DNA of 64,000 bases from Trichoplax sp. H2 (taxonomy: Eukaryota). The DNA is taken from contig NOWV01000158.1 of NCBI GenBank assembly GCA_003344405.1, forward strand, positions 1 to 64,000, in the 5' to 3' direction. The notes beneath the pieces are model-generated. The model was given only the letters and a program-made list of their open reading frames with translations. It ran no database searches and had not been told where the DNA came from. Below are positions 1,980 through 54,546 of the stretch, piece by piece (the first letter of the stretch is position 1; the number at the start of each line of letters is the position of its first letter). Both the position numbers and the translations under genes were made by a program.

Positions 1980-2217
1980 GTGGTGCGCATTTTTAGAGGC
2001 TGTCTTTGACGAGATTGACAACTTGCCAATCAATACTGTTCAATTTGCATAATTTCGCCCACCGTAGAATTTGTACTGTACGCCGCGCCGCGTTCAGTAC
2101 CAGTATGAGGCAACAAAGTGAATCGACCTGGTCGAGCGAGAGTGGTCGAATCACCCCTCTCAAGTGTGTGACAGTACAGTACAGTAGAAGCGACGTGAAG
2201 TCGACTAGTGTATTATT

Positions 2218-10468
<8,251 letters not shown>

Positions 10469-14873: not shown

Positions 14874-17800
14874 ATGGAAGACGAGGAGATTCAACAGATT
14901 AATAAAAGATTAGAAAGTGATGGAATAGATGCAACTGCTACTGCTGAATTGAAATTGCGATATGTATGGAGGAAATTATGCCAAGCTGAAGAACAATTGC
15001 AACATGCTATGCAAGATATTGATGATATCAATGATCGCCATTTTAACGAAAAATCTCAACTGGAAGATTATTTACAACATTGCCAAACGTTAATGAATGA
15101 ATTTCAAGAATATACCGTTGAGATGGCTAAAGCAAAGCAATCAAGCGCGAATAACTCTCACAATTCAAAATTTTCCGCCTATTCAGTGATTAAATCCAAT
15201 ATTAGTATGTCGACACCATTAGCTAAAGGTCGCAATGGAGTTTCTAGTCCATCCAGTACCTTTAGCAGCCCATATATCAGCCCTAGAGAAGAGAAATATC
15301 GAGATATAACCAACACGAATAAGTCTTCCATGGATTCCGTCCTAGCTAATATTAAGCTTGAGCAAGTGCAATGTTATAACGATGAACTAAAGGAAAAAGT
15401 AATTACAACAGTAGATTAACTTTTAGCTGACTTTTAAAAATGAGGCTTGTTTAATAACTTTATAAATTGTTAAAATATCTACTATATAACGAACTTGACT
15501 ACAAATGATTCTGATTTAGATCAGATTAGTTCCTTTACAATAATTCGTCAAGATATATTTTAACTGAGCAATTTATTCTAGAAGAAGTGTTAACCTACTT
15601 CCGATCGTATCATGTAGAGAGAGACATTGCATACTATTATTCGTAACGTTACATTCAGCTGATAATAGATTAGCTATAATTACTGATGGTAATTAATGGT
15701 ATTAAAGCTTATTACTCGTAGCAATCAACAGCGATATACTGTACAGTATGATAAGGAAATGATCTGTTCTAGTAGAAGATGTTGATGTCCATCTTTCGAG
15801 ATTATACCAGGAAGAAGATGCATGGGATACTCATTTGTTAACCAGTTTGGCTATAAACAATGATATCGATCAGTAGCATTAAAAACTATTACTTTACAAC
15901 GGTGAATCGAGATGTATGCTAAAAAATAGTTTTAGTCGTAAGTACTGACATACTTTAACTATACAAGATACGTTTGATACTGTGCTGCTTGATTGAACGT
16001 ACAGTATAATTGGCTATAATTACTAATATCGATTAGCTCGGCAGCTTGAATAACAATTCCATTCAAAATTTTTTCTATAATATTGAATTTGTGAAGCAAT
16101 TTCGAGTTAACAATATCTATAGTTATAGCTAAAGCTGGATTTCAAAGTAATTACGACTAAATACTATCTTGGATCTATTGATTAATTGTTCGATTCGATG
16201 TATAAAATTTGACTATTAACTTATTTCATTAATTTAGGGTAAATTAATTAAAGAATAAAGAATGTAGATAAAGTTGATCAATTATCATATCTATTAAATG
16301 ATGTAGCTTAACCTTCTTATAATTAATGTTATAGGTAAAGCAGCTGAATAAAACGCTCAAAGTAGAGCGTGATCGAGCCATGACACGCGATGTCGAACAT
16401 CAAATTGCCATAAACAAAATTAAGATTACAAGCGAACAAATGGCAACTAATAAAAAATTTAATTTGGTAAGTTAGTTTAATGGCCATTGAAGAAAAATTT
16501 CTACTCCTGTGAATATTTCAAGATGTTATCGTGGTTACTGTAGTCGTTTTAATTTAGCAGAGTAGTATAATACGACTTACGTATCTAAATGTAGCAAAAA
16601 CTAGAGTATATTGCTATAAACTAATTCAAATTGATCTGAGTGATAGGATAACAAAACACGCAAGCTTTACAATTTAATCCGACTATAGATTAGCGTGTCA
16701 TATCATCATTCCATGCTTTGCAGCTAGTATATTTATATACATGAAATTGATAGTCCATTTAGTGATGACTTGAGTGATTGTAGCTATTCAGTTTACTTTA
16801 TTGGGTACTTCACTGTCTTTGGATTAGGAAGCAACATTGTATATTATTACGTTTAATCTGTAATGATGTTTAAATCTAGTTGAAGGTAATAGACCACATT
16901 AATAAAATGTGTTACGTCGATACAGATTGAAACAATTAGGATTACTATTTCAATTATTACGATACTGGCTTGTAATCATTTTAGTGTCTACCCAAAATAT
17001 AAAGTTCTGAACTGTTTTAATTTTGTAAGGAAAGACGGAATCAATTTATGATATAACGATACGGTAAATCGCTAACATTAATGTTTCTTCTTGATGTCTT
17101 TAGGATATATTTAAATTTACTGACTCTAACAAATTAGCAGACCAGATGTCCGAGAATAATGAAAGGTAAGGAGTCACTGTTTTTGTTTACCTATAAGTAT
17201 GTCGATGATGATCGGCTCATATCATTTTTAGGCTTAAATTAAGATGAAATTATGCAATGAGAATACAATACATAAAATTGTTATGATTAATTATATTAAT
17301 TCTAATTAATGGATTGTGATGGAGGGTTCGAAGAGTCAGATAATGTGGTTTTAGTTGCCATGCAGAGAATTGTACAAGGAGCTTAAGAAAAGAGGATACT
17401 TTATTGTAGATTGTAGCTAGGTACAGTGTGATAATTACGGTAGGTCAGTGTGTTAGCTGCCGTGAGTAAAGTGTGAATACTAACTGTGACTAATAATGCA
17501 ACTTAAAACAAATCTAAGGTAGAAAACGGCAGTATTTATAGCTATAGCATTAGAACACATGCAGAGAACATGATTGTAGGATTAGATACAACATATACCA
17601 TAACAGGTTATAGAATAGCAGATGATTGTAGAAAATAGCGAGGACTGTAATAACTAAATGTAGTAAGCCATATTTGAATGCAGAGCGAACAGACTGTAGA
17701 TATGTCTAAATATAAGATCAATACAACATGTCTATATTTAAGAGTAGAATATAGTTACAGTATATTCTAAATACACTACATGGATAATTACCGTGCTTGC

Positions 17801-20800
17801 CATTACGATATAGTGAATCATATAAAGAAAAGCTTTCTAACCTCGCCATGGAAAATGAAGTCTTGAAACATCAAGTTAATGCTATTGCAACTCAATTTAG
17901 CGATCGTTCAGAGCTATACGAGCAGATGCAGTCTGAAATAGATTTTACACAGAAACAAAATCACTTTATAAGACAGCGCTACGATCAACTTGTTTTCCAA
18001 CTTGAACAGGAGGTAAAAGTAGTCTATTGCTCATTTACTGGAAATTTTAAATTTAATACCTCTTAGTAAAGTTGTTATGGTGTTGTGTGTGCTTTGAGAC
18101 TAAAAGTATTGTGATCTGAGGTTTATAACGGAGAAAATAACTAGTACAGGTTCCAACATGTTTCTTTCAAATTTCAACTACTGTATAACTTAGTAGCCAA
18201 TTCATGATCAGGAGGGCATGGTTTTACATGGATCTAGTAACTAGATGAAGTTATAAGTGTGAATTTTATTATAACACAGTCTCATTTTTAAAGTTCTTGT
18301 ATAGATAACCTAAGTATACCTTAATTAGTACCGTGTTTAGATAATATGGTGAAAGGCGATGTTTATCTATCTAAATATGTAAGGCATACATAAGCTCGTT
18401 ATCAGTCGACATTCAAATAAACTATCGATCAGAAATGTCGAGATTGGCAAAATGCGAATTAGTTTTGATAATAATATACAGTACAGTAGTAATTCCGACA
18501 GCATAGCAATACAAACTAATTTGTAGCTAAGCTAGATAAACATTGCCTCATGTTAAGCCGGTAACATTATTAATGTATTCCGCTATTCATACAAACATAC
18601 GCGAATTACCGTATTGAATATGGCTTTCTTTCAATACTTTGTTGAATACTACAGAAGTCACAGAACGAATGTTTCCCATACTTTTTCAGTACAAAATTTG
18701 TATAAAATTGAGTCCAGAATGTATAGGAAACATGGAATTTTTTTCAATTTGGTGTATAATGCATTACTTAACGATAATTAGGCATAGCCTTTCAACCTAA
18801 ATTTTGCAAAATAACATCTAGCGTGCAAAGATGAATCTGCAATAAAGGGTTTATCCCCATTTCCGTTGTTCTTATCTAGATGAGCGATGCAGCTGATATA
18901 GAAATTCGAAATTGTCAAGAGAAATTAAGCCATTATCAGGATATGAGTGAAAGATATGCGGATGAATGTGATTGCTTAAGGATGCAAGTTCAAAAACTAC
19001 AACAGGAATTAGAAGCGACGTTGATTGCTAGTGCAGGAATAGAAAAAGTTTATTCGCAGAGTATTGATGACTTTAGGAAAGAAAAGATCAGGCTTGAGAA
19101 ATTACTGGAATTGAAGGATAATAAAGATAAGAAGCAGGTTTGCCAAATATAAGTATCCAGAATTAAAACGAGTTCTACTTATGAATTTTCATTCCTCTCT
19201 TAATCTTGAGAGTTGGATGTCAGCTATAGCTGATTGTTATATTCGGGTTATACTGCTTCTCTTCTGATCTCTGCTATAATCATTCTGGAACCTTAAGTTA
19301 ATAATTTCTATGGATAAGGTAGAAGTGATTCGTGATATTCACGATCGCTACTCGGTTTCTAGATTCGATAATTAAGTAATTCACGTATTAGATGCAGCCG
19401 GCCTCTATTCGAGTTTATTGTAGCTAAACTAACGATAATAACAAAATTGAGGCGTCTTAATTCAACAGTCTCTTAGATAGAATGCGGATAGGTCCACAAT
19501 TTGGAGTGGTATACCTTATTCAAGAAGAAAATATTAATTGTGAATTTATTTCTCCGCTTAGATTGACACAGTGGCTCGTTATAGCGGCAAACATATTGCT
19601 TTAGAGTGTCAAGTAAACCATTTAAAGAGCCAGTTGAAGAAATTTCAAGATCAAAATACTGAGTTGGAAAAGCAAGTAAGTGAATGGATATAGAAAATCC
19701 TACTACAATCCATCAGTAATTGATGGTCTATTAAAACAATGACATTAGCGTGGAATATAAGATAGGAATATGCAAATATAATAGAAGAATGAAATGAATA
19801 GGAATATTTAAAGTTATATTATGATTTTTTAATCGTATCATATCATACGGTATTTATTTTACTTTAAAGTCTAAATTTGATAAATAAGGAAATTATGTTT
19901 AAATTGTCGCCAAATATAGTTAAAAGCAACAAAGATTACATTCGAAGAGCGATTTAAGAACACTAATGATGATAATATTCGATTGGCCAATCAATTAAGC
20001 GAGAAAATCCAAGATATAAGAAAACAGGTGAGTCTAGATCTGTACTAATATTGCGTGGTTTAGATTTTGGTTACCATGAAGTAAGAATGGATGAATAGGA
20101 TCCACGATTTAGCTGTTGATGATGTTGGAATAATTTCTCTTACTAAATCTCTAATCTAGAGCTCGGAATATTAATTTCATCATTGTTCATCATTGACTCC
20201 CTTTGTTAATCTTGGTAGTCAATCATTACAGCTCATTTAATTCAATTTTGGATAATTCTATGCGAATAGGACGAAACGTTAGCGCAAATTAAGGATTGTT
20301 CAGCACGAGCAGAAAAGGATAAGGAAAAATTAAGGATAGAATTAGATAATCATAAATTACAGGTTGCAAGGTTTGAGCAAGAGGTAAATATTCTTGATTG
20401 TAAGCAGGTGATACTAAGGATCGATATACAAACAGAAGATGTAGAACTTCGCATTAGTTACATATATACATATAATATTCTTAGGATGATAATTCTAAAT
20501 AGAGTTTTTGCTGTTCTAGTTACAAATTAGTATTAAAAATACAAGATTAATGGAAGAGAAATTTTTGGAAGAACAACGCATAAAAAATGGTAAAATTTCC
20601 TTGAACATCATTATAAGTAGTTACATAGGAAAGCACTGTTATCTTTTTACCATAGATATAAATAACAAGCTTGTCCACCTTTATCTACTAAGATAATCTG
20701 GAATTGATAGTTGTTGACCATAAATGCATTATCTATGAATATTATTCGTAAGATTAAAGTAATTGTCCACTTTTTGTTGTTTCATTTTAGGTCTAACTGG

Positions 20801-23347
20801 CTGGATTGAAAAATGCAAAATAAAATTACAGCATTATAGAGTAGCTAAGAAAAGATTAATCAAGGAAAAATCTGTCAGGTTATGACAAAAGTATTTTAAA
20901 TTAATATCTAATCATGAAAATTGTTGACGAATATTCTCTTCAACTAACTTATATAGACATGCCCTACAAGAGAAAGTTAAAAAATCTGGTCGGCAAGTGA
21001 AGCTTTTACAAGAAAATCAGAAAAACTTCAAGGATATCATCGATCAATTACAAAAATCTGTTAATATTACTCAAAATGAATTAAGATTAAATCAAGCCCA
21101 GAAAGAAAATCTACAAAATTTGGTATAGTGGAATAGTAATTTAAATGATTTTAGACCAGTACTTGTATAGATTAGAGGATAGAATGGATTCGATCATTTC
21201 ATAGCAATCAAATTATAGTGAGAGTATCTTGTTTGATGCTTACTGACCGTATGCAGCGAATTTTATAGCCATCAGAGGCGAAATAGAATTGCAGAAGTTT
21301 ATCAAAGCTATATAACGTTGATATTGTCAAGGATACCTACTCTGATAACCATATGCCATTTTCAATTTTATTGCTGTTAGGAGTAAAATGTTAACGTACT
21401 CGTTTGCCATTTCTAATGAGATATAACTATGACTGAGTTAGTGGTAATAAATGGCAGCTGTTAAGCAAAATTTTATAGTCAATGATCACTCAACTCAGTA
21501 TAGCGAAGAAAATGTATAATACCACATATAAAATAGTAGTCACTTTTGCTAGATATCATTTAAATGTTGCCTGGAGATCCATGTGCAGGACTAATTACAA
21601 ACTAAATTAGAATAAAAAAATGTACTGTAGATTCATCAATATGAAATGATGTAGTTATACTGCTACTTTGAGCAAGAAATAAGAAGCAAAATCGCTATCA
21701 TTTTATTCACGTTTACCGGTTTCTTTATTTCATCTTGAAGCTAAATCAGAAACAAGGATCCATTTCGGTACTCCAACAACAAATTAAGCAAATGGAGCAA
21801 GAATGTTACGTCCTAACGACCAATTTTGAAGATGCAAGTAATCAGTTATCCGCTCGAGGCTACAGTCATAAAAATGCTATAACAGAGTTGATTGGTAAAA
21901 TGGAAGAGCAAAGGTAATATATAATCTTAGAGTATAATCAATCTTTCTTAAGTAGGCTATCATTAGTCCCAGATACGCATCATATTTCTGATATACACAG
22001 TAGTTTCCCAATGATTTACTCTTATAGCAAATCCTAAAATTAAAACTTTAGATACTACGTGCAGTAGATCTTTTAAAACAGAAAGTAATCCATGAATGAT
22101 ATCCATCATCCATAATAGATCATGGATAAATTTAAATTGGAGACTTTTTATCCCATAATTTTAATACACAGTCTGTAAAAGATACTATCTGGTAACGAGT
22201 TTTCCTTATTCTATAGCAAGAAGACTGACAATTTTACCTAAAATCCCCTAATTTTAAGTGTAGCTTTTATTTGTTAGAGTACTATTTGTATCAAGGTGTA
22301 TGGTATGTCGTTGGATAAATTGAGTATTTGCACCTATTCTAAATTATTTGAAGTTATTAGCAATGGAATTGAAGGCTTATATGTATGAAATCATCATTCC
22401 TGTAGATATTAATGACAATAGGAATTCACGGCTGTTATACTTTATCTTTGAATTTAGGGAAAGCTATGAAATTGAAAGGGGAAAGTTGGATAATATCATT
22501 CATAGCCTAGAGCATCAATTAGAGATTTATAATGAAAAATTAGGCGAATTTAATTCAATTCATGCTCGTCAGCAGCAAGCTATTTGCCATTTACTGGAGG
22601 AAAAGAAGCAACTGGAAGATCGGTAATGATGCAAATTCGTAATCTATATTATAATTATAATAATGGTTTAGTTTGCTTAGTAATTTTTGCATAAAATCAT
22701 ATACTTGAGCGCATCTATGCGAACATTTTATATTGGAGAATACAGTCGAAGATGATATTTGTAATGTCTGAATCATTGTATATTTGAATGTATATTTGCA
22801 TACTCCTTTTGAAAATACTACTGTAAATGAATGTACAGCAGGAGAAATGGCGTTGTGTTGATTTATCACCTGGTTATAATCTTATCTGTCTTTGTATACT
22901 TACTGTCTTCTATTTGATATGTAGTTTAACTCTCAAATCGCAATTGCAAGAGGACAATAGAATGCTGTTGGATAAAATTACTGCACAATTTGAAATTATT
23001 GAGAAAGAAAATCAGTTACTACAGGATAAAGCAAGGTCGTTGCAATTAGATAAAGAGAGATTGGGGAAAGAATTAGATAATAAGAATATCAACGTAAGTC
23101 CATTGAGATTATTAATTAAAAATGAGAGTTGAGGTTGTACCAGCTCAATGCAATACTTGAAATGTTTATTTTGTAGGATTCATCATGGGATGCAGAGAAT
23201 TTATATAGTAATCCATGGTATCACGTTAAATATCACGATGAAGATATCGATAGCGATCACTACAAGCAATTACATAAAAACTATAATATTGAGGAATTTC
23301 TAAATAGCCCTGGCAAGGGATCAAGCTTGCATGAATTTGATTATTAA
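14874..23347 (+). CDS. Long multi-exon coiled-coil protein; N-terminus tentatively resembles CCDC30-family proteins
   Basis: Frame-consistent exons include 14874-15398, 16335-16466, 17104-17165, 17814-18012, 18880-19137, several more through 23093, and a last exon 23177-23347 (TAA). Heptad-rich E/Q/K/L composition throughout. The segment LESDGIDATATAELKLRYVWRKL...EKSQLEDYLQHCQTL recalls CCDC30-like proteins from memory, not verified. The ATG directly follows an AG acceptor, so upstream exons are likely. Confidence 0.7.
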
Positions 23348-23655
23348 TTTTGCAGTATCAATGGTATCATTATTTATAGCTTATATCGATTTTATATCTT
23401 ATTAAACTTTTTTTGATGATAGTTTGCAATTTATCAAGGCAATTGTAATTCGGATATGTAAAGTTTAGCAGCTGTAATAAGGTAAAGATATTTTTGGATT
23501 ATTTTTGATTTTTCTAATTTTATTCTGTATACAATGAAGCTTTATTCTTCATTTTATACACTAGCCGTAATTACAATGATGTTGATTATATATTATTCCA
23601 AGCCTGCCTTATTATTTGGTAGTCTAATGTAAAGATTTTACTCTACCTCGCTATC

Positions 23656-23925
23656 TAGAATGATTTTAAGTATTTTAAATGGACATTTTACTCGTATATA
23701 GTATAATGATGATGATGATGATCATTCTAATATATACTTAGAATGGTTTTCAGGTATTTTAAATGGACATCTTATTCCTAGGTAGTATAATGATGATGAT
23801 GGTCATTCTAATATTGTCAGTAGAATGATTTTAAGGATTTTGAACGGACATCTTATTCATATGTAGTGCATATAATAATGATGATGATGATGATAATAAT
23901 AAATGGGCATCTTATTCATACGAGT
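23656..23925. repeat. ~83-bp tandem repeat, about 3.3 diverged copies, each with a (GAT)n microsatellite
   Basis: Unit tagaatgattttaag.attttaaatggacat.ttattc.ta...agtataatgatgatgatg starts at 23656, 23739 and 23821, with a partial copy near 23901. Confidence 0.85.
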
Positions 23926-25074
23926 ATGTAGTAGAATCATCTAGATATCGAGTTCCGTTATAGGCTAGCAAGAAGACAAGTTGCTGTATCTCAATACGAC
24001 TATTAGAGTGGCCTATTTCCTAGTCTAATTGTCACGACGTAAGACTAGCCGGTGTCAATTCTTGAATACTGTAGAAAGAATTGCCATGTTGAAAAGCGAT
24101 TTTCTAGCAGTATTTGGGCCGAGTTTTACTTTCTTCTTAGCTCGATGCAGCCTGGAATCCTGGAACAAATACACCACACCCTGCAATATGGTCGCTATGG
24201 CAATTCTATCCAGTATCTATCGATAATAATATTATAATTAGCAACCACTCACCGCCCTTACCGCACCAGTTGGGGTCAGCGGTATGTTTACAAAAAAAAA
24301 TTTCTTGATGAGGAATAATTGGTGTTTGCAGTGCTACTGTAGAAGCTGTTGAAAAAGGAGAGAAAATTTCAACAATGAAACCATATTCAACTGTCTTATT
24401 CATGAGTGAAACTGGAAAAAGTTTCCCTTGCTCTCTTTTTTTCAAATCGTTGTTGTTAGTAGCTGTAGAGCACAGGCAGATTGCATGGCTACATTGATCG
24501 CTCCTCCCCCATTTTTCTTCATTAGCCAGGAATAATTTAGCTCGAGTCCTGCTAACTGCTGACTCATGCCGTTGCAAAGATGGCTGTTAGCCTTTTCGAT
24601 TGGCTTACATGATCAACTTGTAGCAGTTGCAATTTTAGATTTATGGGATGGATTATTGTGAGTAGAATTACAAGGGGTTGCTATTCTCCCATGACATCAG
24701 TTAATTTATAACTTGTTTTTATACACTATTTTCCCAGCTTGAGATCGATATCCGATAGAACCATAGGAGAATTCTCTTTCAGCCCCTTCTAGCTCAGCGG
24801 TGAGCATGATGTCCGGATTGACTTTTGGAAATAAGTCTGTCTTCTATACAACAGTATGAGCACAATCGCCTACATCATACACTACCTAGACAGTCTACGC
24901 TCGACTGCCCTTACTCGATGCTCGATACGATTGTACACCAGTATACTACCCCATACAATACCTTGAATCCAGTCTATATACTACTTCATATGATCAGCCC
25001 ACTTGGCTATATAAAGTAACTCAGAAAGTGCATTTTCTTTCTTCTCATCTTATCCCATCAAGACGGATAGCTTG

Positions 25075-26630
25075 GCTATATTCAGCTCGACAATCCTCTC
25101 TTAATCGATCTAGCGTGATTTTATCACTTCTGCAATCAAGTTAAGCATGTCGTCAAATAATGGAAAGTAAGTCTAGCGTAACTTCCTTGTACTGTTTGCT
25201 ATTTTATTGCCGAGAGAGAGAGAGACAAAAAAAATACACAGCTGATGCTTTACTCGTACAGTATTCGGAGATTCGCTTATTGCAGGATACATTTGAGCTC
25301 GATAATCCTTAACTTATCTAGCGTGATTTGATTACTTCTGTAATCAAGTTAAGCATGTTGTTGAATGATGAAGAGGAAGTCTAGTGTTGCTGTTTTATTG
25401 CTAAGTGAGAGAGACACACACACACACAAAATACACAGCTGATGCTTACTCGTATAGTATTCGTAGATTCGCTTATCGGAGAGTACATTCAGCTCGACAA
25501 TCCTTAATCGATCTAGCGTGATTTCATCGCTTCTACAATCAAGTTAAGCATGTCGTCAAATAATGGATAGTAAGTCTAGCCTTACTTCCTTGTACTGTTT
25601 GCTATTTTATTGCCAAGAGAGAGAGAGAAAAAAATACACAGCTAAGCTGATGCTTTACTCGTACAGTATTCGTTGATTCGCTTATTGGAGAGTACATTCA
25701 GCTCGACAATCCTTAATCGATCTAGCGTGATTTCATCGCTTCTACAATCAAGTTAAGCATGTCGTCAAATAATGGATAGTAAGTCTAGCCTTACTTCCTT
25801 GTACTGTTTGCTATTTTATTGCCAAGAGAGAGAGAGAAAAAATACACAGCTAAGCTGATGCTTTACTCGTACAGTATTCGTTGATTCGCTTATTGGAGAA
25901 TACATTCAGCTCGATAATCCTTAGCCTATCTAGTGTGATTTGATTACTTCTGTAATCAAGTTAAGCGTGTTTTTGAATGATAGAAAGGAAGTCTAGTGTT
26001 GCTATTTTATTACCAAGAGAGAGAGAGAGAGACCAAAAAAAAAATACACAGCTGATCCCTACTCGTACAGTATTCGTAGATTCGTGTATACTGTTGCTAT
26101 TTTATTACTAAGAAACAGAGAGAGGAAAAAAATACGCAGCGGATCCTGACAGTACAGTATACAGTAGAGATAGTCTTGGATATTGGAGATGAGGCGTGCT
26201 ACGCCTATCTCGACCACATTGAGCTCGACAATCCTTAACCTATCTAGCATGATTTCATTCCGTCTATAATCAAGTTAAGCATGTTGTCAAATGATAGAAA
26301 GTAAGTCTAACGTTGCTTTCTTATACTATTGCTATTTTATCGTTAAGAAAGAGAGAAAAATATACACAGCTGATCCTTGCACTCGTACAGTATAAACAGT
26401 ACAGGGATGTTGTAGATAGGGTATGACAGGTGTTGTATCTTGGCTATATTGAGCTCAACAATCCTCAACCGATCTAGCGTGATTTCACTACTTCTGTAAT
26501 CAAGTTGCTGTAAGCATGTCGTCAAATAATTAATGGAAAGCCTAGCATTATACTATTGCTATTTTTCATTGCTAAGAGAGAGAGAGAGAGAGAAAAAAAA
26601 AAACACAGCTGATACTTTTACTCGTATGGC
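25075..26630 (+). repeat. Tandem array of seven ~200-bp units, each holding a copy of the apparent PGD first coding exon, plus (GA)n, an A-tract and CACAGCT
   Basis: Shared unit ...agctcgacaatcct...atctagcgtgattt...aatcaagttaagcATGtcgtcaaataatggaaa|GTAAGTctag...gctattttattg..gagagaga..aaaatacacagctgatgc.ttactcgtacagta. Start-codon positions are 25147, 25355, 25550, 25759, 25967, 26281 and 26516. Confidence 0.92.
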
Positions 26631-29600
26631 TAGATGACATTGGATATTGTCGATGGGGTGTGGGCTACAAGAAGAAGAGAGTGTGCTTTGTCATTGCAAC
26701 AGCTGATCATCATCATGAGCCCACACACTGTTCTAGGATCGAGAAAGGTTGTGTTCAAATGCATCATCATCATCATGAACAAGTGTTCTATACTGATGGC
26801 TAGATAAATGGGCATCATACACAACTTGATTAGTCTTAATTGGATAATCATCTAACGCTTGATAGCGCGATGATAATAGAAAACTGATCTTTTATGTAAA
26901 TTCTATCTTTTTAGGGCAGATATTGCACTCATTGGTCTGGCTGTTATGGTAAGCTTGCATACTAACATTCTAGAGTGGATCGCTACTCTTATTATCGCCA
27001 TAGGGCTAGATAGCGGTAGACAGTCGACATACAATACTGTAGGTGGTACAATTTAGCAGAAAATGACCAATTAAGTTATTAATCAAGAATGCTCCAACTT
27101 AATACTGTTGATAAATACATGATGATTTGGTGTACATGCAGGGCTGCTACTGCTTGTAACTATGAAAGCTTATACTTTGTCTTTCTTACAGCAATTTTTT
27201 TGTTCTCATACCTTGGCATACTTGCATATATTATGTACTGTACTACTTTATCGTTGTCAATCTTTGCCTCTTATACTCGTATGAGCAGATACAGTATTCT
27301 ATCGAAAATTGAACTGTACCTTGATGGTAACGCAATGTACATTTATGGAGAGATTGTAGTGGTGATTAAAATGTTGAAGTGCAATTTTACTATAACACAT
27401 AGAGTAGTAGTTGCCGCCATTGAATTAATTACCAGTAGACTGCAACGTATCTATATCTGTGATGGAAGAATTGCAAGGTTCTAACCAACGTTGTCATTAA
27501 ATGACATCGAAGGACGCCACGATTCTACTTCAGAATTCGAAGTTTGAATCAAAATTTGGCTTTGATTACTAGAATACCCATATAAAACCCTTAAAAGAAA
27601 TTATTAATTAATGTTACACGATATATTCTTGCCATAATTTATTGTTTAGGGCCAAAATATCATCTTGAATATGAACGATCACGGCTTTGTGGTAAGCTAC
27701 TAACCTCTATGCTAAACCATGTAGCAATCTACTGCCACTATGCGTATTAATGCAGCTAAATATCCTGTTGATATTAGATATGATAAATAAATGTATTTGT
27801 TATACGGGTAGTCAATGCTGTGTCTATTGTAATCTGCTCAAAAGTTTGAGCCCGTCTACTGCCATCAAAGTAAATGAGGAAAGAGCACTATATTGTAATT
27901 GTTGAGTCTTCATTGAATCTTATCAATCAATTACTGTTAAGTTTCTTACTTTTAGACCCTATACGTTAACATAGTTCTCGAATGTAGACAGAAGGATGTT
28001 TAGGCTTTTTGATTAAATTACGCAATGATCTATACCACTAATTTCTATCCATTTCAAAATCTTGGCAGGTTTGCGCTTACAATAGAACAGTTCAAAAGGT
28101 CGAACACTTCTTACAAAATGAAGCAAAAGGTTATACCAATGACCAATTATTTGAGCAATTTTTTATTTAAAGTGCAAGTTAACTTTTAAAAGTGATGTTA
28201 TTGTCGCCGAACTGAAGTTGCTGAATAGTATTCTTGCCGTGTTACATCCTCGATGTATCTGATTACATGCTTATTTAATGGACCTCTTTCTCTTGTTCAA
28301 GAATTGTATTTCAACGTTCTTGCTGTTTCATATCGTGGACCTACAATTTATACTAAAAAATTCAATTGTCGTCTAATAAAGGTACTAATGTTGTTGGTGC
28401 TAAAAGCATTGAAGAAATGGTCTCTTTATTAAAGAAGCCGCGCAAAGTGATGACGTTAGTTAAAGCTGGAAGAGCAGTGGATACACTTATCGAACAATTG
28501 GTAATTTGATTTTGGAGAAACATTCAAATTTCTGTTTTAGAACTTACTACTACAGTATCTACTATTATCAAACGACACAATTATAGAATTACATAAAAAA
28601 TTGTGTTAGCAATGAGATCTTTATATCGAAAAGAGTTTATTATTTTGATATTAGAGAATTCTTTGATTACGAAGTCCAGTTATGATGATGTAATGATGAA
28701 TGTTTTCTCTTCGTTGAATATTTGTTTTTCTTTCCTTATGAAATACTATGTATTTCATTAACGATTGTATGCTAAAATATAATAAATTAATATTAAATAC
28801 TCATTTGATTCTGTAAAAATTTAAAACTAAGCTAGTAGTATTACTGATCACCATATAGAGGACTTAAGTTCAATGCTACCGTTGACACGGTTTTTCTTAT
28901 TTCTTAAGGTTCCTTTGTTAGAGGCTGGAGATATCATTATTGATGGTGGAAATTCACAATATACCGATACCCAGGTACCGTTGGATATGCAGTTAATCGT
29001 ATCATTCAAAATGTTTCATTAAATAGCGATTTAATAAACATATCTAATTATAATTAAATATCTATGGCAATGTCTTCTATCCTTTTTTCTGCTTTAGCGT
29101 CGATATAATGAACTAAAAACTAAGGGTATTTACTACTTGGGCTGTGGTGTTTCTGGAGGAGAAGATGGAGCTCGGTATGGACCTTCTTTGATGCCCGGAG
29201 GTGCCGCAGAAGCTTGGTAAAAATAACGCTAGAAAATTGATAGGAAGTTTCATTTGATATACCTTGTATATAATTCCTATGCTCTTAATGATTTACTAAA
29301 TTGTTACATTGCATATTCGTCTAAGCCATATTTAGCTCATTTATTACCGATTAATTGTTACGACCAATTGTCTAGGCCGTCACTTAAGCCAATCTTCCAG
29401 TCCATTGCAGCTAAAGTAGGAACTGAACCCTGCTGTGATTGGGTAAGAAATGCATGATTAGAGAAATTTTTGAAGCAATGAACTTTTATTTTCAAATTGC
29501 TTGCGTAAACTAACATTGAAAGCTATAAGTAATACGTGCATATGCTTATCATATTTGTAAGAGTAATGGTTACGTTTGCATCTTAGGTTGGTAGCGATGG

Positions 29601-31409
29601 AGCGGGCCACTTTGTTAAGATGGTACACAACGGCATTGAATATGGTGATATGCAGGTAATGATAAGAAATTGCTTTTAGACTGTTGGTCATATCAGCATT
29701 AATGAGCAATAATTAAAACTTTTAAAATACTCGATTTATAGCTTATCTGCGAAGCTTACCATTTGATGAAAGATTCTCTTGGAATGAGTGATGACGAAAT
29801 GAGTTCGGTATGATCTTAAATTGTTTAATATTTAAATTTTATTATATAGCATATAATAACATTTAGGGCTCTTGGTGTTTTACAACGCAATTGTTGTCTA
29901 TATGTAGGTTCTGAAAGAGTGGAATAAAGGTGAACTCGATTCATTTTTAATTGAAATCTCTGGTGATATATTAGCCTATAAAGATAGTGATGGGCAACCA
30001 TTATTAGAAAAGATAAGAGACGCTGCTGGTCAGGTAACCGAATGCATGTTATTAATTACAGTAGACAGTTTGAATGCATAGGAGAGCACACTTGCGGAAT
30101 ACAAATATCTTTTAGTCAGAGAAATAAATTATTCGGTATTTATATTCAAATTAGAAAGGAACTGGCAAATGGACTGCTATTTCTGCTCTTGATTTCGGCA
30201 TGCCTGTAACATTAATTGGTATGTAGATCAAAAAATGACGTTCTGTGCAACTATTTTGATAACCTATTGCGTTTCTGCAGTCTTATTAAACGCCATTTTG
30301 TTAAATACAGGTGAAGCCGTGTTTGCTAGATGTTTATCGTCTTTGAAAGATGAGCGTGTTCGAGCTAGTAGCGTATTGAAAGGCCCTTCTAGTGCAAAGT
30401 ATACTGGTGACAAGAAGGAATTTATCGAAAATATTCGAAAGGTTCAAAGTCTTCGATTGACATATTTATTTTGAATCAGTTAGTAAAATGGTTCTATTAT
30501 GATAATTGTAGGCGTTATATGCTTCGAAAATTGTATCTTATGCGCAAGGCTTTATGCTATTGCGCGAGGCCGCAAAACAGTTTAACTGGACGTTAAATTA
30601 TGGCTCGATTGCTTTGATGTGGCGAGGTGGATGTATTATTAGGAGGTTAGAAACTCAGTCAATTAATTTATTGCTTTATTATTACTAAATTACTCATTCT
30701 CCAAATTTTTCATTGATTCTCAGTGTGTTCTTGGGCAATATCAAATCCGCGTTTGATAAAAACCCTAATTTGGAAAGTTTATTATTAGATGATTTTTTCC
30801 ATTCTGCAATTGATTCCTGCCAAGTATGTACTGTATTGATATTATATTAGAAATTGGTATGCCTTGCCTAATGCTAACGTACGATTTAATCAATAGGAAT
30901 CCTGGCGTAAAGTTGTGGCAAATGCTGTATTACTTGGAATACCTACTCCATCATTCAGTTGCGCTTTGGCCTTTTATGACGGCTATCGGTACTGTGATCG
31001 ATTTATCTATTTTTATGCTGTATTTGCTGTATCATGGTTTAGTGGTGCTTTGTTTATGATCCAGTTCCATTTCCAATTACTTATAAAAGCCGTATTTATT
31101 TCAATTATAGCTCGTCCCGCCTACCTGCTAATTTAATCCAGGTAAGATCTATACGAATATTAAGTACTGCTAATTTATTATTAGCAATATACTGCATAGC
31201 ACATCTTTAGTTACTAAAAGGGATATGTCCAGTGTCTCTTGATATTTTACTTATTCTAAGTATATGATTTGCTCTATCTCTTTTTTTAGGCACAACGTGA
31301 TTACTTTGGAGCTCATACCTACGAGTTACTTTCCAATCCCGGACAGTTTATCCATACTAATTGGACTGGTCATGGCGGATCGGTTTCTGCATCTACATAC
31401 CAAGCTTAA
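25147..31409 (+). CDS. PGD: 6-phosphogluconate dehydrogenase, decarboxylating (multi-exon)
   Basis: Exon 26915-26948 ([11 protein letters not shown]), 27650-27691 ([14 protein letters not shown]), 28069-28129, 28382-28500, 28909-28974 (IIDGGNS), 29098-29216 ([19 protein letters not shown]), then [26 protein letters not shown] and MWRGGCII, to the last exon 31290-31409 ([11 protein letters not shown]...HTNWTG...TYQA*). The first exon must be phase 2; candidates are 25147-25166 (MSSNNGK) or 26281-26300 (MLSNDRK), so the start is uncertain. Confidence 0.95.
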
Positions 31410-33606
31410 TCTCTTAGTTCTAGCTATCATTTATCTCCTTCAAGGTCATATGGATTTCATTTTTGTTGTAGTTTATGACCTTTCTTTAAAGGTGGCATTA
31501 TGATTATTTCTGCAATACTTCTTTCTATGATAATTTTACTGTTTCGCAATCCTGCGATTATGATCAGTCACCTTGTTACAGACAGTTGGTCAAGCGTATT
31601 GTGAAAGTAGTGATAACTACATGAATGCAATAAAATGATAACGTTACATGAATTAATTTTAAATCGCTTGTTTTTCTTATAATTTAACCCATACTTTCAA
31701 ATGATAAATGGCAAGATTGTTATGCATTTAAAAGTGTAGTGTAATAGTGACAGATGCTGATTCATTTTAGGAGACATCAACACTGTACAGTTAAGGATAT
31801 GATCAAGACATTTATAACTCGATGTTAGTGTGACACGTATGCTCTAGAAGATGTATTTCTATAATGTTGGCAGTACAACAATCAGCCATGCGTACCATAA
31901 TAATTATCAGTTAATCTTGCTTATTAAAAGAACCTTAGTTTATAGTTGATTTATGGTACTATTTTCATATTTTTATATTTTGCAAAATGAATTTGGCCCT
32001 AGCGAAAGCAGCAAAATGCTACCGGACTTTGTCCTATTCTACTTTGACCTGATATTTGATCTTCAGCTAATGTTGCTACTGCCAAAATAGATGTACAGTA
32101 GTGATTGGTTAATCTATGATGTTGTATAGGATAACGGTAAAGTATAAGTTTAAGTTGATGATAAATAGGATATTTTCCAGTACGAAGTAACTGAAAGTGG
32201 AAGATTAGTTTAACCTAAATAATGTGTCGGCATCACTACAATACAAGGTGCATGATTTTTTGATATATTTTTTTACATCGCTAGTCCACTATTGGTATTA
32301 TGAATAGTCTAAACGAAGTCAAAGTCCCTTGCACTACAACAAGTCCGTTATCGACTATTTCAGTTTAAATTCGATATCATGTGCTTATTTCATAGTAGGG
32401 CGGTGATACATCTTAAAGAAGAGGTTTAATCCAAACATATGCATTAATTATAATAATTATTAGTTAATTGATTTGCAAGCATGTGTGAGGATCACGTCAA
32501 CGATTGGAAATCCTGTCGATCGGCCATGAGCGGGTGGCAGTCAATTGAATTGAAATGAATGCTGTAATCATGATCATTATACCTGATTCAAGAAGTCGCA
32601 TGGGATATTATTTCCAGTAGAATGTTATGAGCAATAACCATCAGTATCTTGATCGTTCTCTTTTTTGTATGATGAATTCTATCATCAATATCATGCTAGC
32701 CATGTGGCTGACGGCTAATAACGTTTCCATCGTAAAGCAGCACGATAATATTTCCAAGCTGCCAAGTGACCCAATATAAGAGTAATAATTTCGCAAGATT
32801 GATATACTTTACTTTGGAATTATCCAATTTCAGAGTTTTTACCTATAAAACTTCAATTTTATAATCCATCCTACAACAATTGGACATTGCCCGAACCGAT
32901 GGTCAAATCATGCATTCAAATTCATTCTATTTATTTATTTCTATCATGATATACAGAGGAAGAAGACGAATTGAACGATAAAAGTTGAATTTGTAAAAGT
33001 AACTGCACCAAAATCCAATTTAAAACATTTACTATAACATCCAATACGACTAGACTGTTATCCTATATTGGTTCTCCGTATGCCATTTTGAATGACAAAA
33101 AGTGCTAGTTCGAGCTAGAACTATTTTTAGTATGCAAACGATTCATCAATTTCATTCATTTTTGTCATGACTAAAATCTCCATTTTAATCGCTGTCATGC
33201 AGATCTTGAAGAAGAAAGTCATACTATTCGAAGAAGTACTTTCTACTGTATAGAATGATATCCATAACAGTAATTATTTCATAAGATTGGGACATTAATT
33301 TGGATATTATCCAACTCCAACGTATGCCCATGACTTAGCCATTGTCAGCAATGGACTACAGCTGCTTTACACGCTGCTCCATAACCCTCTATGGGTAGGT
33401 GATGCACTACCCTATAGTGAACAGTAGTATGCGCAGTATGGTCTCGGGCATACCATTGGATTCCCATACTCTACACTACACGCTATAGTGACTACGTCGA
33501 TCGAATAGTAATTCAAGTATAAATTCGTCCACTGCAAAGGTTCTTCTCATCATTTGTGGAGAAGACGATTTTGCCAGTTTGGGCTTGCGATTGTGTCGAC
33601 CAAACC

Positions 33607-37038: not shown

Positions 37039-47228
<10,190 letters not shown>

Positions 47229-47229
47229 A

Positions 47230-48400
47230 CCGGTAGGCAACTGCAAAATCTCGGCTCCCAAGCTATGCCTTCCGCATGTAAAATGATATCCAACAATGTT
47301 GGTGTGGTAGTCCCTTTGGTGAGGAAGACGTTGTAGGCTGTAGCAACTTTTTCTTCTGTCTTTGTCCTTCTGAAATGGAGAGATACCGGACAACATTTCT
47401 GTTGATTTTAGTCATGCTCAGTTGGACTGTAGATTGTAAGCTACAAATAGACCTACACCAGTTGTGAACGGACCGGAACGGAACGGTGCTTCGGTTACTG
47501 GTACTCTGGTGCTCTTGTTGTACAGTACAGTATATACTGTACAGTACAATGTACTGTACTGTACAGTACGGCATTACTGTTGTGTACCGCAAAATACGGT
47601 ACAGTACCAGTACAGGACAGGACAGGATGGACTGGACACTTTCGTCTTGTTTGACACGGATACTGTAGATATCTCATTTTGGTTGCTGCAACCGCAGACT
47701 CACCTTGTAGAATAAAATGAAATATGAATTTTTCATCTATTCATTAATTAATGATCAATTGATTTCTCAGAAAAATGGATGTATCATAGTAAAAGATTAA
47801 GTTTGTCAATGGATATAAAATCAATTCAATCTAGGATGTGCTAAAAATCAAGCTTTGCTTGCAGCTGCTTTGCAGCCCGTGCTAAAGGTAATGCTTACAG
47901 TACTTTACTGCGTTACCGTAAGCCATTCTGAGTCTACTAGAGAAAATTCTTGTCAATTCCTTAGCATAACTTGCATAACTGTAAAATGGGAAGAAAAAAA
48001 AAATTGGACGCCAGTCACATGGCGACTCTGTACGAGGAAATGTCTGTCAGTACTGTCAGTCTGTCTCTGATCAGATTGCAGTACAGTACTGTACTATAAA
48101 TGTAATGATTGTCAGCTCGTACTGGACCATCGTTGGGGGGACCGGGACCAGTACGGTATGAGACTAAAAACCTTTCTGTTTTCTACAGTCTACAGTCTAC
48201 AGTCTACAGTACAGCGCTTCAACAGACCCAAGCACTGTACACACTGCAAAGATACGCACGCGTCTAGAGACCCCAAAGAAAACCGTATCACAAGTCCGGC
48301 CGGACTAGGAAAGCGTCGTAGTAAAAGACTTGACGATATAAACAGATCCACAGTTTCGACACTATTCGTGGCTAGCAGTGACCATCAGAGAGAAATCATC
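47230..48400. promoter_or_regulatory. Putative bidirectional promoter between Mi-2/CHD (-) and SSR3 (+)
   Basis: Divergent start codons ~1.17 kb apart. CAGTA palindrome clusters at ~47520-47615 and ~48080-48245, and TATAAA at 48095-48100. Confidence 0.55.
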
Positions 48401-50629
48401 ATGCCGGCTTCAAAGTCTCGTAAAAGTGAAGACGACTTGCTATTGCAAGATTTTAGCAAAAATGTTACCACTGCTTCTTCAGTCATTTTTTACATCAACG
48501 CCTTGTTGGTTTCTGTGGTGCCGATATGTAAGTTAATCAATGCTTTTCATTGAGTATACACCTGTTTGTTTGACAGTCGTAGAGGAAAGTATCTGAAAGC
48601 AACATTTTCTATCACGGATGCACGGTACACGTTGGGTGGATTGCTTCCCATTTTATGATGATATGTTCTGTCCTTATTGTCGTCATATTGGTCCGAGATC
48701 ATTTTACCGATGTCTAAATAATTGATATCACTCGCCATACATTTTCTCCTACCTAACTTACACTTCACTGTAGGCACTTGATTACTTGAAATTTAGTTAC
48801 GGTAGGCTTTGTTCCAACTCCCAACGACGTTACTCTACAGTACTGTAAATGGCGATTCTGCAATTGATGAAACCATCTCAATGTACGTGCTACTTATCCT
48901 TCATATAAAGCATCTAGAAATTTCGGGATCGGAGCCGAAAATGTTCTTTTGAAAGTTGATGGTAATGAAGTTGAAATTAATTTAGGAACCACTACTTTCA
49001 CATACCCTGTCAATGGCTGTCAGGACGGTACTCAATAGCGTGGGTTACAGCCGTGTTGCTGTCTTGTACAGTACAGTACAGTGAGCGCACAACAGCGCTT
49101 CTGTACAATACAGTACAGTAAAGTGGCTTGCTTTTCCTTGCTTAGTACGTGAGGCATTTTAGACTTGTTGGCGCAGGTTTCATTTAGCTTATTGTATGAT
49201 GGACTAGAATAATTCAATCTGTCCATATTCTTATCCTTTACTTCAAACATTATTGATTTGTATCTATTACTAGAAAAGGATGACAAAAAAGAGACTGGAG
49301 ATGAACATTTTCATTGTGTACTCAGTATAACATTATTGATCCTACGCCATTGCATGTAAAGTTAATAACATTGTCATCTTTACAGATCACTGTAGTGAGC
49401 TCTTGATAGGCGTAAATATACGCTCATACAAGTATATAAATTAAGAATAAACTTCACTTTTGGTATCCGTAAAGCTTGGCAAGTTGTTGCCATTCTTTAT
49501 GAGTCTACATTACAGTAGTAATACTTGGTTCCGCGATGTCGCCTGTATTTTTTGACCAGCTAGCTTTGAAGCATACTTGCATATGCACACACACATTGAT
49601 GATAGAGCTTACGTCGGCTACTCGATTACATTATGCATCTAGTCACTAAAAGTTTCTTAAAATTCTTCAACTATAGGGGTCTTTTGGAGAATCCATCAGT
49701 TAGATCCAAGATCTGCGGTGATTATCTATGTTCTAGGCGCAGCAGTCAGCACTTATATGGTGGCTTTTGCTTACAAGAACGTTAAATTCAATTTGAAACA
49801 CAAGTATGAATATTATTTCATCAAGTTTGCGTTTAAATCGTAAAATATGGTATCGACTGCAAGTTACTATCTATTTGGTTTTGAATTTCATAAGTTTATA
49901 GCTGCTATCTGCACTATACCATAGTCAATGTTTTTGAATACAAATCTATTTAATTTAATATAATGCTGTAGTAGGGGTTTCTAAGAGAAAAACTCCCAAA
50001 ATCCCTGGCTGTAGTAATTTAGACGACTTTATTTCTTGATAGAATCGCTGTTAGTCGCGACGAAGGTGTAACAAGAGAAGTAAGCAATCAACTCAACAAT
50101 TCTGCCAATGGGAAAAAGATCAATAAGAAGGAAAGAGATGAGAGGTTAGTTCTGCATTAGCGTTTCGCCTACCTTTCCTTAGTATAATTGTTTGGTGGCT
50201 TAAATATGAGATATCAGTGAATAATTTTCATATGAGCTTTTGCGTTACTGAAGAGTCGTTTCGGAATTTAGAAAGCATCATTAAATTTTTCAGAGTTTTA
50301 TGGAAGAAGAATCAAGTTGCCGATTATGAAGCCACGGCCTTTTCCATCTTTTACAACAATGTACTTTACATGCTACTTTTGATTGGAGCTTCCTTCTACA
50401 TTTTACGAAATTTCAGCCCTCAATCGTATCCTTTCATATAGTAATTTAATCAATTGTAAGGGTATGGGTTTGTTTATTACTCTATTCGATAGTAGTATAG
50501 AAATTTTATGTACAGCGTTTATATTTTCGATTAAGTACAATACTTATTCCTTAACGTTATTTTAGCAATTATATTTTATCCACTGCTGTTGCTGCTGGTC
50601 TTGTCGCTCTTTTCTCAACTGGCTCTTAA
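48401..50629 (+). CDS. SSR3: Translocon-associated protein subunit gamma (TRAP-gamma), 5 exons
   Basis: Exons 48401-48527, 49677-49803, 50043-50143, 50294-50425 and 50566-50629: [22 protein letters not shown]...[27 protein letters not shown]...[29 protein letters not shown]...[20 protein letters not shown]. Confidence 0.96.
50426..50565 (+). other. U12-type (minor spliceosome) GT-AG intron, SSR3 intron 4
   Basis: 5' splice site GTATCCTTT and perfect branch sequence TTCCTTAAC at 50547-50555, 10 nt before the 3' end. Frame-consistent. Confidence 0.93.
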
Positions 50630-51878: not shown

Positions 51879-54546
51879 CTAGTAAGAGCAGAAAGATCGC
51901 GAAGATCTATTTTCTAATTGTGCAGATAATTTATCCAGGATACTTGACGATAAGTCGTAAAGTTTGGGATTTAAACTAATAGCTGTCTTGAGTTCTTCAG
52001 TTGATAAGTAGTTACCACACACAGCATTTAATTTAGCAACAAGTGGCGAGGAAATTATGTCTTGATCAGATAATTTAAGCAGCTTTGAAAGGTCACGATT
52101 TTGTCTGAAGAGATATTTTTGATGGTAGCTAAAAATGATAATAATAAAGCGAAAACTGAGGATATAGCGTAATTTCTAATATTTGTGCTTAAGTGACATG
52201 CATAACTATAAATAGAATGTACAGACTCTATTACATAATTAATATGATTACAGCAAGTAAAGATACAGTACATGCCTACCAGTTACTTTTTTGTCACAGT
52301 ACTGTAGTCGTAATGAAATAAATTAATCTTCATTGATTCAAGCCATTCAAATGGGTGTTCAATTTTACTGTTTACTGCACTGATGAACTGTAATGTACTA
52401 CCTATTACTTATCCACCAGTAATCAAAATTATATTTACTACGAGTATTATCTTAATTGAAAGTTAATAAGCGTATAATAATTTTTAACTCGACGTACAAT
52501 ATACTCGCGATATATCGTATGTGAGGATTTCCAGCATCTCATAAATACTCACTAACATTACAGCAGACAGTACACGGTACGGTATAAAGTTACTGAACCT
52601 CTGTTAAATGAGCACATTATCGTAAACCGTCAGTAAAGCGACGGGAGCTTGCACTAAAATTATATATAAATATATATATTATACAGTATGAATGAGTGAG
52701 TAAGAGTGTTCCACATAGCTAAAAATGGAGAGTTACTGTAAGATTAGAGAAATGCGGTATGTATATCAGTATATGTCATACACTCTACTACTACACAGTA
52801 CACGGTATAAAGTTNNNNNNNNNNNNNNNNNNNNGTACTACCTATTACTTATCCACCAGTAATCAAAATTATATTTACTACGAGTATTATCTTAATTGAA
52901 AGTTAATAAGCGTATAATAATTTTTAACTCGACGTACAATATACTCGCGATATATCGTATGTGAGGATTTCCAGCATCTCATAAATACTCACTAACATTA
53001 GCAGTATGTCAGAATCCGACAGAAATACTGCACTATGATAACACTTATTACTTAACTACTCAAATGTTACTGAAATTCAATCTAACTATGATATTGACTA
53101 GCGATCGCCGATATTCAGTAGTGACGACTGATTCAGTGATAGCCGTAATCTTATTCACTTCAGATATGGAATTTCGGACTAATAGTTTAATGCTGCAGCT
53201 AAAACTCTCTAACATTTTTTGTTTCTTTTGCTGGTCAACTTATGACAAATGATTCATATTTGACAGACTGTAGAGAATACACACTTGCAGTAATACAGTA
53301 CATACTTCTCTGCAAGGAAAAATTTGCCAGCAGGTTGTATTACGGTGACAATTTTGCGGTAGACATGTTTTTGGCGGTCAGCCATTGATCGCTTTGCTGC
53401 TGCTTCTTGCTTAGCATCATGATAAAATATTGCGGACATATACTGATTGCTTCTCTTGCTGGTGGGATTGTGGGATGTCCAAAACTTTGTCAGTAATTCT
53501 TCGTATGAGATAACATTAGGATCATATTCAATTTGGATGGTCTCGGTATGATCGCCCCTAATCATGCAATATCAGCGTATACAAAATAGCTTCAGCATCA
53601 AGTTACAAGCGACAACAAGCCACATATAAGTATAGACAGAATATCATTCAATTATTGAAATTGTACATGTTACAAACTGCAACGGTTATCTTAAAATATA
53701 GGACTAAGGCCTACCCACAGAATACTCGTACATTATACCATAGACTACTTTTGTTATGCTGTACGTATATTCTCGTATATGTTATATCGATAACAATATA
53801 CAGTACACATAGCGAAAGCTAAAATATTCTCAGTTATGTCGTAGACTGAGTTCGATAAACCGATACGAAATCTAGTCTACTGTACGACTTGGTCTGATAT
53901 GATCTGAATCGATGGCTGACCTTATTTGTAAATAGCAGAGTCGAACTACTACTGTACGAAATAGAATACTCGGTCGATATGTACATGAAAAAGGAGAGGG
54001 TCATAACTATAATTAATTCACCGAAAACTCAGCACATTTCGTGCAACGCTTTACCAGTACAGTACTGTACAGTATAGCACTCGGACCCAAGGGCGTGTTG
54101 ATTAGAGCTGGAGATAAGTGTATAACGCACTTTCCATTACTATTCCCTTTACGAATGAATAATTTAAACGAAAAGTATCATAGGTAATGAAGAATGTTTC
54201 ATACAATTCTGCATTAAATGGCCGCTTCTTTTTAATCCTATGAAAATGGGTTTAAATCAAGTATGATTACTGTATGAATCATCACAATAACAGCAGCGAA
54301 TTTAATGTACGAGTATTTCGCCGGTAACTTTTCTTGATGCTATCATGATTCCAATAATATTGATTGTACAGTATTTAGTGTACTTTGCTGCAATTATCCT
54401 TACAAATTGTAATAAGTTGGATTTAAGGTCTTGCCCCCAGCAAATCCAACTTTAGTCCTGATGACGCCATTAAGAGCGGCGAACTGGGCTTCGGGAAACC
54501 AAAATCAGCTTAATGCGAGGGTTGCTTTAGCGTAAGTCGATGCCAT
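51879..54546 (-). CDS. MSRA: Peptide methionine sulfoxide reductase A, predicted selenoprotein (Sec at residue 14), 214 aa
   Basis: Exons 54546-54404, 53557-53306 and 52128-51879: MASTYAKATLALS(TGA)FWFPEAQFAALNGVIRTKVGFAGGKTLNPTYYNL|GDHTETIQIEYDP...QYMSAIFYH...FFLAEN|YHQKYL...FCSY*. The TGA (plus-strand tca, 54505-54507) aligns to the Cys of the GCFW active-site motif. Confidence 0.93.
52395..53000. other. Assembly gap (20 N, 52815-52834) with a ~166-bp exact direct duplication
   Basis: 52395-52560 is repeated at 52835-53000, immediately after the N run, inside MsrA intron 2. Confidence 0.9.

Follow-up and report, generated by a model that had tools for sequence, protein, structure and literature searches.

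The gene for 6-phosphogluconate dehydrogenase (PGD) of the placozoan Trichoplax sp. H2 raises a simple question: which of seven similar, tandemly repeated copies of a first exon supplies its start codon? The gene lies on the forward strand of contig NOWV01000158.1 (assembly GCA_003344405.1), and the window analysed here is the stretch of 64,000 nucleotides from position 1 to position 64,000 of that contig. PGD exon 2 begins in phase 2 and contains no start codon, and the next in-frame methionine falls within the GLAVMG stretch, part of which exon 2 encodes and which we take to be the dinucleotide-binding motif; therefore, an upstream first exon is required. Contigs from two RNA runs join the first of the seven copies to exon 2, and we consider it probable that the remaining six are decaying copies removed together with intron 1.

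The array consists of seven head-to-tail units of 195-314 bp each, showing 75-100% pairwise identity and spanning window positions 25060-26668, together with one partial unit lacking the exon (Table 1). Each full unit comprises approximately 70 nt of 5' untranslated region (5'UTR), a start codon, 17 further coding bases, a donor position and 110-230 nt of intron-like sequence, within which an (AG)n/A-rich tract is found; the 12 nt immediately 5' of the start codon are identical in all six insertion-free units. The alignment of the seven units with MAFFT placed the beginning of the homology at about 25068-25075, and Tandem Repeats Finder (TRF) returned a period of 209 with a score of 949, the young core reaching 94% matches; a repeat this strong goes well beyond what chance would give. 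With seven copies in register and a unit longer than 6 bp, the array qualifies as a minisatellite; with seven homologous copies preceding exon 2, it also has the structure of tandem first exons, that is, at least two homologous first exons located before one common second exon. When the units were compared by BLAST with the whole 64-kb window, all 63 matches fell within 24900-26900 and no copy was found outside the array; therefore, as far as this window extends, the unit is no dispersed element. Around the array, the search for flanking repeats or transposon ends returned only short, simple inverted matches of the (ATG)n type, and the exact 31-nt unit pattern gave no match in metagenome contigs.

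By sequence identity, units 1, 3 and 4 form a group A (93-100%), units 2 and 5 form a group B (87%, with a common 17-nt deletion and a GG donor), and units 6 (C) and 7 (D) share 75-83% identity with the other units. Disabling changes are present in five of the six downstream copies (2 to 7), and among the old copies the conservation of the 5' part of the unit (80-88%) slightly exceeds that of the intron part (74-81%). A first-pass annotation, made from the letters alone, had described seven copies with the position and state of each, had placed a phase-2 start on exon 2 (26915-26948), and had proposed that the 5'UTR, the start codon and the donor of PGD were amplified in tandem. On reading the sequence, all seven copies were recovered where and as described; the phase of exon 2 was borne out, and the units and their alignment agree with the proposed amplification.

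The use of the copies was assessed in four of 24 public runs, namely the RNA runs X19 and X20, which are two samples from a single study, a run labelled 'RNA?' (X14) and a DNA run with another organism label (X3). The run data are contigs, which drop rare isoforms, cannot prove absence and cannot show RNA starts, and the evidence on joints comes from the 15 of 18 joints that are listed. X19 and X20 behave as RNA: both carry GT..AG joints of PGD, and the depth of X19 is 0-0.6 over silent DNA. X14, having no joints and covering introns, was not accepted as RNA and was treated as DNA.

In both true RNA runs, a GT..AG joint connects position 25166, at the donor of copy 1, to position 26915, at the beginning of exon 2. 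Specifically, a single X19 contig comprises 25040-25166 followed by 26915-27574, and the corresponding X20 contig, with a depth of 63.1, continues through the joint 26948->27650. The product of bin depth and bin length is matched exactly if the X20 5' contig consists of about 25056-25166 and exons 2, 3, 4 and 5. The listed joints of the X19 and X20 contigs include none from the donors at 25569, 25778 and 26300, so that 25166->26915 is the only one among them that splices a copy to the common exon. In addition, the X19 depth is zero over 25210-26814, compared to 17.8-27.7 over exon 1, and the sole RNA-run contig lying over copy 6 (X20, 25747-26520) passes unspliced through its donor at a background depth of 4.8. 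Copy 1, which the first-pass annotation had named as a supplier of the missing start codon, is therefore confirmed by the joint in both RNA runs, and among the listed joints that land on 26915 the only donor is 25166. Its suggestion that further copies are in use as alternative promoters or N-termini, as stop-generating first exons or as competing donors finds no such joint among those listed, and its fallback, a birth-and-death array in decay, fits best.

Table 1. Features of the PGD 5' region and coding exons, in window positions.
Feature	Position	Strand	Basis
Candidate TATA box (TATAAA) preceding the entire array	25010..25015	+	sequence; function inferred
Exon 1 as far as the RNA contig reaches: at least 107 nt of 5'UTR plus 20-nt coding part (copy 1)	25040..25166	+	X19 contig
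Unit 1 (type A), intact and used	25060..25279	+	MAFFT alignment; 93-94% identity to units 3 and 4
Copy 1, 20-nt coding part from the start codon in use (MSSNNG plus 2 nt of K), then donor GTAAGT	25147..25166	+	joint 25166->26915 in X19 and X20
Copy 1, ATG plus 17 nt, GTAAGT; MSSNNGK-ADIAL once joined to exon 2	start 25147	+	intact
Intron 1, 1,748 nt, contains copies 2-7	25167..26914	+	GT..AG joint
Unit 2 (type B), donor GT->GG	25280..25474	+	87% identity to unit 5; 17-nt deletion common to both
Copy 2, donor GGAAGT	start 25355	+	sequence
Unit 3 (type A), donor kept, exon end TA giving TAG with exon 2	25475..25683	+	alignment, sequence
Unit 4 (type A), same TAG-making change, 99-100% identity to unit 3	25684..25891	+	TRF, alignment
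Copies 3 and 4, GTAAGT present, exon end ..GGATA giving TAG after splicing	starts 25550, 25759	+	sequence
Unit 5 (type B), ATG->GTG and donor GG	25892..26085	+	alignment
Copy 5, GTG for ATG, donor GGAAGT	start 25967	+	sequence
Partial eighth unit, intron part only, without 5'UTR or exon part	26086..26205	+	local alignments to intron parts of units 5, 6 and 7
Unit 6, formally intact (MLSNDRK plus GTAAGT); first exon of the deposited H2 protein model	26206..26435	+	copy start 26281
Unit 7, exon as copy 1 except a 4-nt insertion giving TAA; donor deleted	26436..26668	+	copy start 26516
Exon 2, phase 2 at 5' end	26915..26948	+	joints 25166->26915 and 26948->27650
PGD exons 3-18 to the stop codon	27650..31409	+	RNA joints; introns 3 and 4 from sequence

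Fifteen RNA joints, together with introns 3 and 4 read from the sequence, define PGD as a gene of 18 exons with an open reading frame of 486 aa, and the 3' RNA contig ends at 31482-31497, past the stop codon. Intron 1 is the longest of the 17 introns (1,748 nt vs 70-701 nt for the other 16), and about 1,500 nt of it are array. In Pfam searches, six exon translations matched NAD_binding_2 or 6PGD, five of them above the curated cut-off: the exon 7 translation scored 41 bits against the N-terminal NAD(P)-binding domain PF03446 (cut-off 21), the exon 5 translation stayed below it with 17 bits, and all four exon translations of the C-terminal region scored 28.5-68 bits against PF00393, above its 27-bit cut-off. 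Exon 13, used as a query, matched at 100% identity a protein named 6-phosphogluconate dehydrogenase of Trichoplax sp. H2; a T. adhaerens protein is the only other member of its 90% cluster. PGDs of cnidarians and sponges came up alongside the H2 protein, and the complete open reading frame matches named orthologues. Compared with the T. adhaerens protein (P0121), the spliced 486-aa model has a single difference (T87A); compared with the deposited H2 protein (P0002) it has three, at residues 2, 5 and 6, all encoded by exon 1. The enzyme should be little affected by which N-terminus is used, since animal PGDs show no conservation of the first 6-7 residues.

Where transcription begins bears directly on the role of the copies. 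The RNA contigs reach back to 25040 in X19 and, by bin arithmetic, to about 25056 in X20, which is 25-45 nt downstream of the TATAAA sequence and upstream of the point at which the homology among units starts. Therefore, it appears that the transcription unit encloses the entire duplicated segment and that the promoter is located in the unique DNA upstream of the array. The 107-nt leader 25040-25146 contains no ATG, vs 12 in 24467-25039.

The explanation that we consider probable is that the array lies inside the transcribed region, that the cap-proximal copy provides the AUG and the donor, and that copies 2 to 7 are spliced out with intron 1 and are decaying. Specifically, a segment of about 200 bp from the transcribed 5' end of Trichoplax PGD, running from approximately 70 nt of 5'UTR through the ATG, 17 further coding bases and the GTAAGT donor into the initial 110-230 nt of intron 1, would have been amplified in tandem, likely by unequal recombination or replication slippage, leaving seven copies and a partial one. 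With a promoter to the left of the array, every pre-mRNA would start with copy 1, which would carry both the first AUG and the cap-proximal donor and would be spliced to exon 2 at 26915. The splicing machinery prefers the cap-proximal donor; if the donor of copy 1 is the one used, copies 2 to 7 would be removed with intron 1, of which they would merely be sequence, and would therefore decay without selection, by lesions as diverse as the donor change GT>GG, ATG>GTG, a stop-making change, and an insertion with deletion of the donor. In addition, splicing from a later donor would retain sequence in which an in-frame TAA comes after the AUG of copy 1.

As for the history of the array, the succession of the units, A B A A B C D, points to unequal exchange that duplicated whole blocks. 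Copies 1 and 7, at the two edges, have the same exon sequence apart from the 4-nt insertion in copy 7, which fits edge copies retaining the ancestral state; judging from these sequences, MSSNNGK may be the old N-terminus.

Several observations weigh against this explanation. First, the deposited PGD of Trichoplax sp. H2 begins with MLSNDRK, i.e. with copy 6, and copy 6 is intact despite a divergence of about 20%. Second, both RNA runs come from one study, as contig data that lose rare isoforms, and three of the 18 joints are outside the listed set; bin arithmetic would make them, in all likelihood, one odd joint of X19 together with introns 3 and 4 in the 5' contig of X20. Third, the 5' contigs have depths of 17.8 (X19) and 63.1 (X20) against 556 and 860 for exons 6-18, figures by which, being contig depths, parts of a gene cannot be ranked; X19 has no contig for exons 3-5. 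Fourth, an ACAGT motif is present in every unit, and in the available portion of PMC2871265 this motif is reported upstream of Trichoplax genes, so that promoter activity within the units is possible. Finally, an X19 RNA contig (24467-25069, depth 27.7) lies upstream of the presumed start.

This upstream RNA contig overlaps the X19 exon-1 contig by 30 nt, and X20 shows only background upstream of the presumed start (contig 24292-24805, depth 5.2). No Pfam family was found in the open reading frames of the upstream transcribed stretch 24209-25144, and an Rfam scan of 23300-27700 at E<=1 returned no match. The RNA-run coverage over 24292-25069 could stem from an isoform with a long 5'UTR, from RNA transcribed divergently or in antisense, or from carry-over of DNA.

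Other features of the contigs were noted along the gene. The X19 5' contig has intron 1 removed and intron 2 (26949-27574) retained. Both main mRNA contigs start 31-32 nt before the end of exon 5 (28469-28500), where the X20 depth jumps from 63 to 860. By bin arithmetic, about 25 nt of the X19 main contig appear to fall in the exon-1 bin (24889-25209), which would place a joint at 28470; this joint has no GT..AG parse in X19 and would be out of frame, and the piece may be a template-switch artefact.

The conflict over the N-terminus extends to the public protein models, which come from near-identical genomes and start with different copies. The T. adhaerens PGD, described as 'expressed' by its source, begins with MSSNNGK, the copy-1 type. 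According to the part of PMC6057997 available, the H2 genome was annotated by an evidence-based Maker pipeline with Augustus, GeneMark and assembled transcripts. Transcript-derived N-terminal fragments were also searched with residues 1-60 of P0121 among shorter proteins (1,778 matches at E<=1e-8 among 1,881 candidates); no Trichoplax entry and none above 92% identity was present among the 120 matches listed. Since the RNA contigs support copy 1, the N-terminus of the H2 PGD may be mis-annotated, and the RNA contigs together with the T. adhaerens model correct, or at least question, the public H2 gene model. A minor use of copy 6 is possible.

A broader use of the copies would make the array a set of working alternative first exons or promoters, in which copy 6, and perhaps others, would have its own start and produce an MLSNDRK isoform in certain cells or under certain conditions, and copies 3 and 4 would yield stop-containing transcripts, prone to nonsense-mediated decay, that tune the output of PGD. 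The choice of copy 6 by the public H2 model, the ATG, reading frame and GTAAGT donor that this copy retains, the shared 12 nt before the start codon and the ACAGT motif of each unit are all in keeping with such a role, and the hydra gene of Drosophila, on the evidence of the portion available of PMC1904467, is an array of this kind with several active start sites. We nevertheless regard it as rather unlikely, since the listed joints include none from the donors of copies 3, 4 and 6, the X19 depth is zero over units 2-7, and the X20 contig over copy 6 is unspliced. Moreover, the units contain neither the TATAAA nor the unique upstream DNA, and their 5' part is barely better kept than their intron part. 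A more elaborate version, a relay of mini-promoter and first-exon modules in which copies 1 and 6 would act in different cell types or states to give two N-termini and copies 3 and 4 would produce decoy transcripts, appears very unlikely to us; if it were true, copy number would adjust the entry enzyme into NADPH production in an animal that is among the simplest.

A second alternative places the function in the DNA rather than in the exon: the repeated 5'UTR and intron sequence, with its ACAGT motifs, would work as a promoter-proximal or intronic enhancer in multimerised form, or as a chromatin element, and the number of copies would determine the level of PGD transcription. On the plus strand of the window ACAGT occurs 217 times and on the minus strand 179 times, with about 66 expected on each, and every unit holds at least one. 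ACAGT repeats are reported to be located no more than 1 kb ahead of genes in 54% of cases (PMC2871265), and ACAGT is reported as a chromatin-associated motif in Trichoplax (bioRxiv 10.1101/2024.11.14.623548). However, one ACAGT per approximately 200 bp is only about 1.5 times the window average (217 in 64 kb), and the units diverge freely, with indels of 17-100 nt, so that we judge this reading unlikely. Over the window as a whole, ACAGT clusters at 1-3000, 46000-49000 and 54000-56000, often in short tandem runs, and its excess matches that reported upstream of Trichoplax genes in the accessible part of PMC2871265.

The array as a whole is no assembly artefact. Contigs from other runs bridge five of the seven unit boundaries (U1/U2, U4/U5, U5/U6, U6/U7 and U7/unique intron) with at least 31 nt on either side; among the contig pieces listed, none bridges U2/U3 or U3/U4, and with U3/U4 unbridged the copy number of the near-identical pair 3/4 is given by the assembly only. 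The contigs concerned are those of X3 (23767-25162, 25227-25344 and 25937-31530), X20 (25747-26520) and X14 (24844-25147 and 26493-26798). The X3 depth of 56-70 over the array, vs 33.5 in the flanks, was not taken as a measure of copy number, since pieces fitting two places were summed. The first-pass annotation had allowed for a single true unit, which these bridges contradict. That one or a few units were wrongly expanded is extremely improbable, for in spite of the 99-100% identity of units 3 and 4 and the two unbridged boundaries beside them, units 1, 2, 5, 6 and 7 differ from one another by 13-25%, independent contigs (X3 25937-31530 and 25227-25344, X20 25747-26520) bridge divergent units, and two public protein models from two assemblies hold two different copies.

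A spliced-leader RNA gene array was also considered, given the short exon with a GT donor in units of about 200 bp, and found no support in the scan and the contigs at this locus: the Rfam scan described above returned nothing, and the RNA contig is collinear with the unique upstream DNA and joined in cis to exon 2. The same scan (23300-27700, E<=1) likewise supports neither an array of snoRNAs nor any other known RNA within these units.

Elsewhere in the window, a second tandem repeat lies between the upstream gene and PGD (23656-23904, 84-bp unit, about three copies, 81% matches, with (ATG)n tracts). The upstream neighbour (14874-23347, plus strand) looks like a long multi-exon gene for a coiled-coil protein, its open reading frame pieces being sub-threshold in Pfam. 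An assembly gap of 20 N is found at 52815-52834.

The PGD array can be set beside several known systems. Protocadherin genes have variable first exons of the same kind as UGT1A. At UGT1A, tandem homologous first exons share common downstream constant exons (PMC9013439, portion available), an arrangement that the Trichoplax array resembles; the UGT1A and protocadherin first exons are long, encode functional domains and have a promoter each, whereas the Trichoplax exon encodes 6-7 unconserved residues and five of its six extra copies are disabled. The available text on Drosophila melanogaster hydra describes nine tandem alternative first exons with at least four active starts (Chen et al. 2007, PMC1904467). 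There, as here, exon 1 was recurrently duplicated in tandem, with homologous first exons before one common exon 2; unlike hydra, the Trichoplax host gene is an ancient housekeeping enzyme, only its first copy is seen spliced, and neither the units nor their surroundings yielded a transposon, the units having no copy elsewhere in the window. Unexpressed exon-like copies in introns and UTRs are described as common in the part consulted of Ivanov & Pervouchine 2022 (PMC9013439; Letunic et al. 2002 cited therein): exon-homologous copies, many of them unexpressed, arise in the adjacent intron or UTR by local tandem duplication. The PGD array differs in having seven copies that include the start codon and the donor, in a compact placozoan genome. 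For Trichoplax, the accessible part of PMC2871265 reports few transposons and 9,208 minisatellites, most of them in fewer than four copies; among the 15 papers listed by a full-text literature search on Trichoplax tandem repeats and first exons, none concerns this locus.

In conclusion, the PGD array is a structure of a known kind, sharing with Drosophila hydra and UGT1A the tandem first exons before a common exon, with a single copy in use on present data. It reveals no new mechanism. It offers a natural example of a start codon and a donor duplicated inside a transcription unit, in which the cap-proximal copy would keep the job and the others would persist as intronic fossils with differing lesions, and the array is likely a copy-number-variable marker between placozoan lineages.

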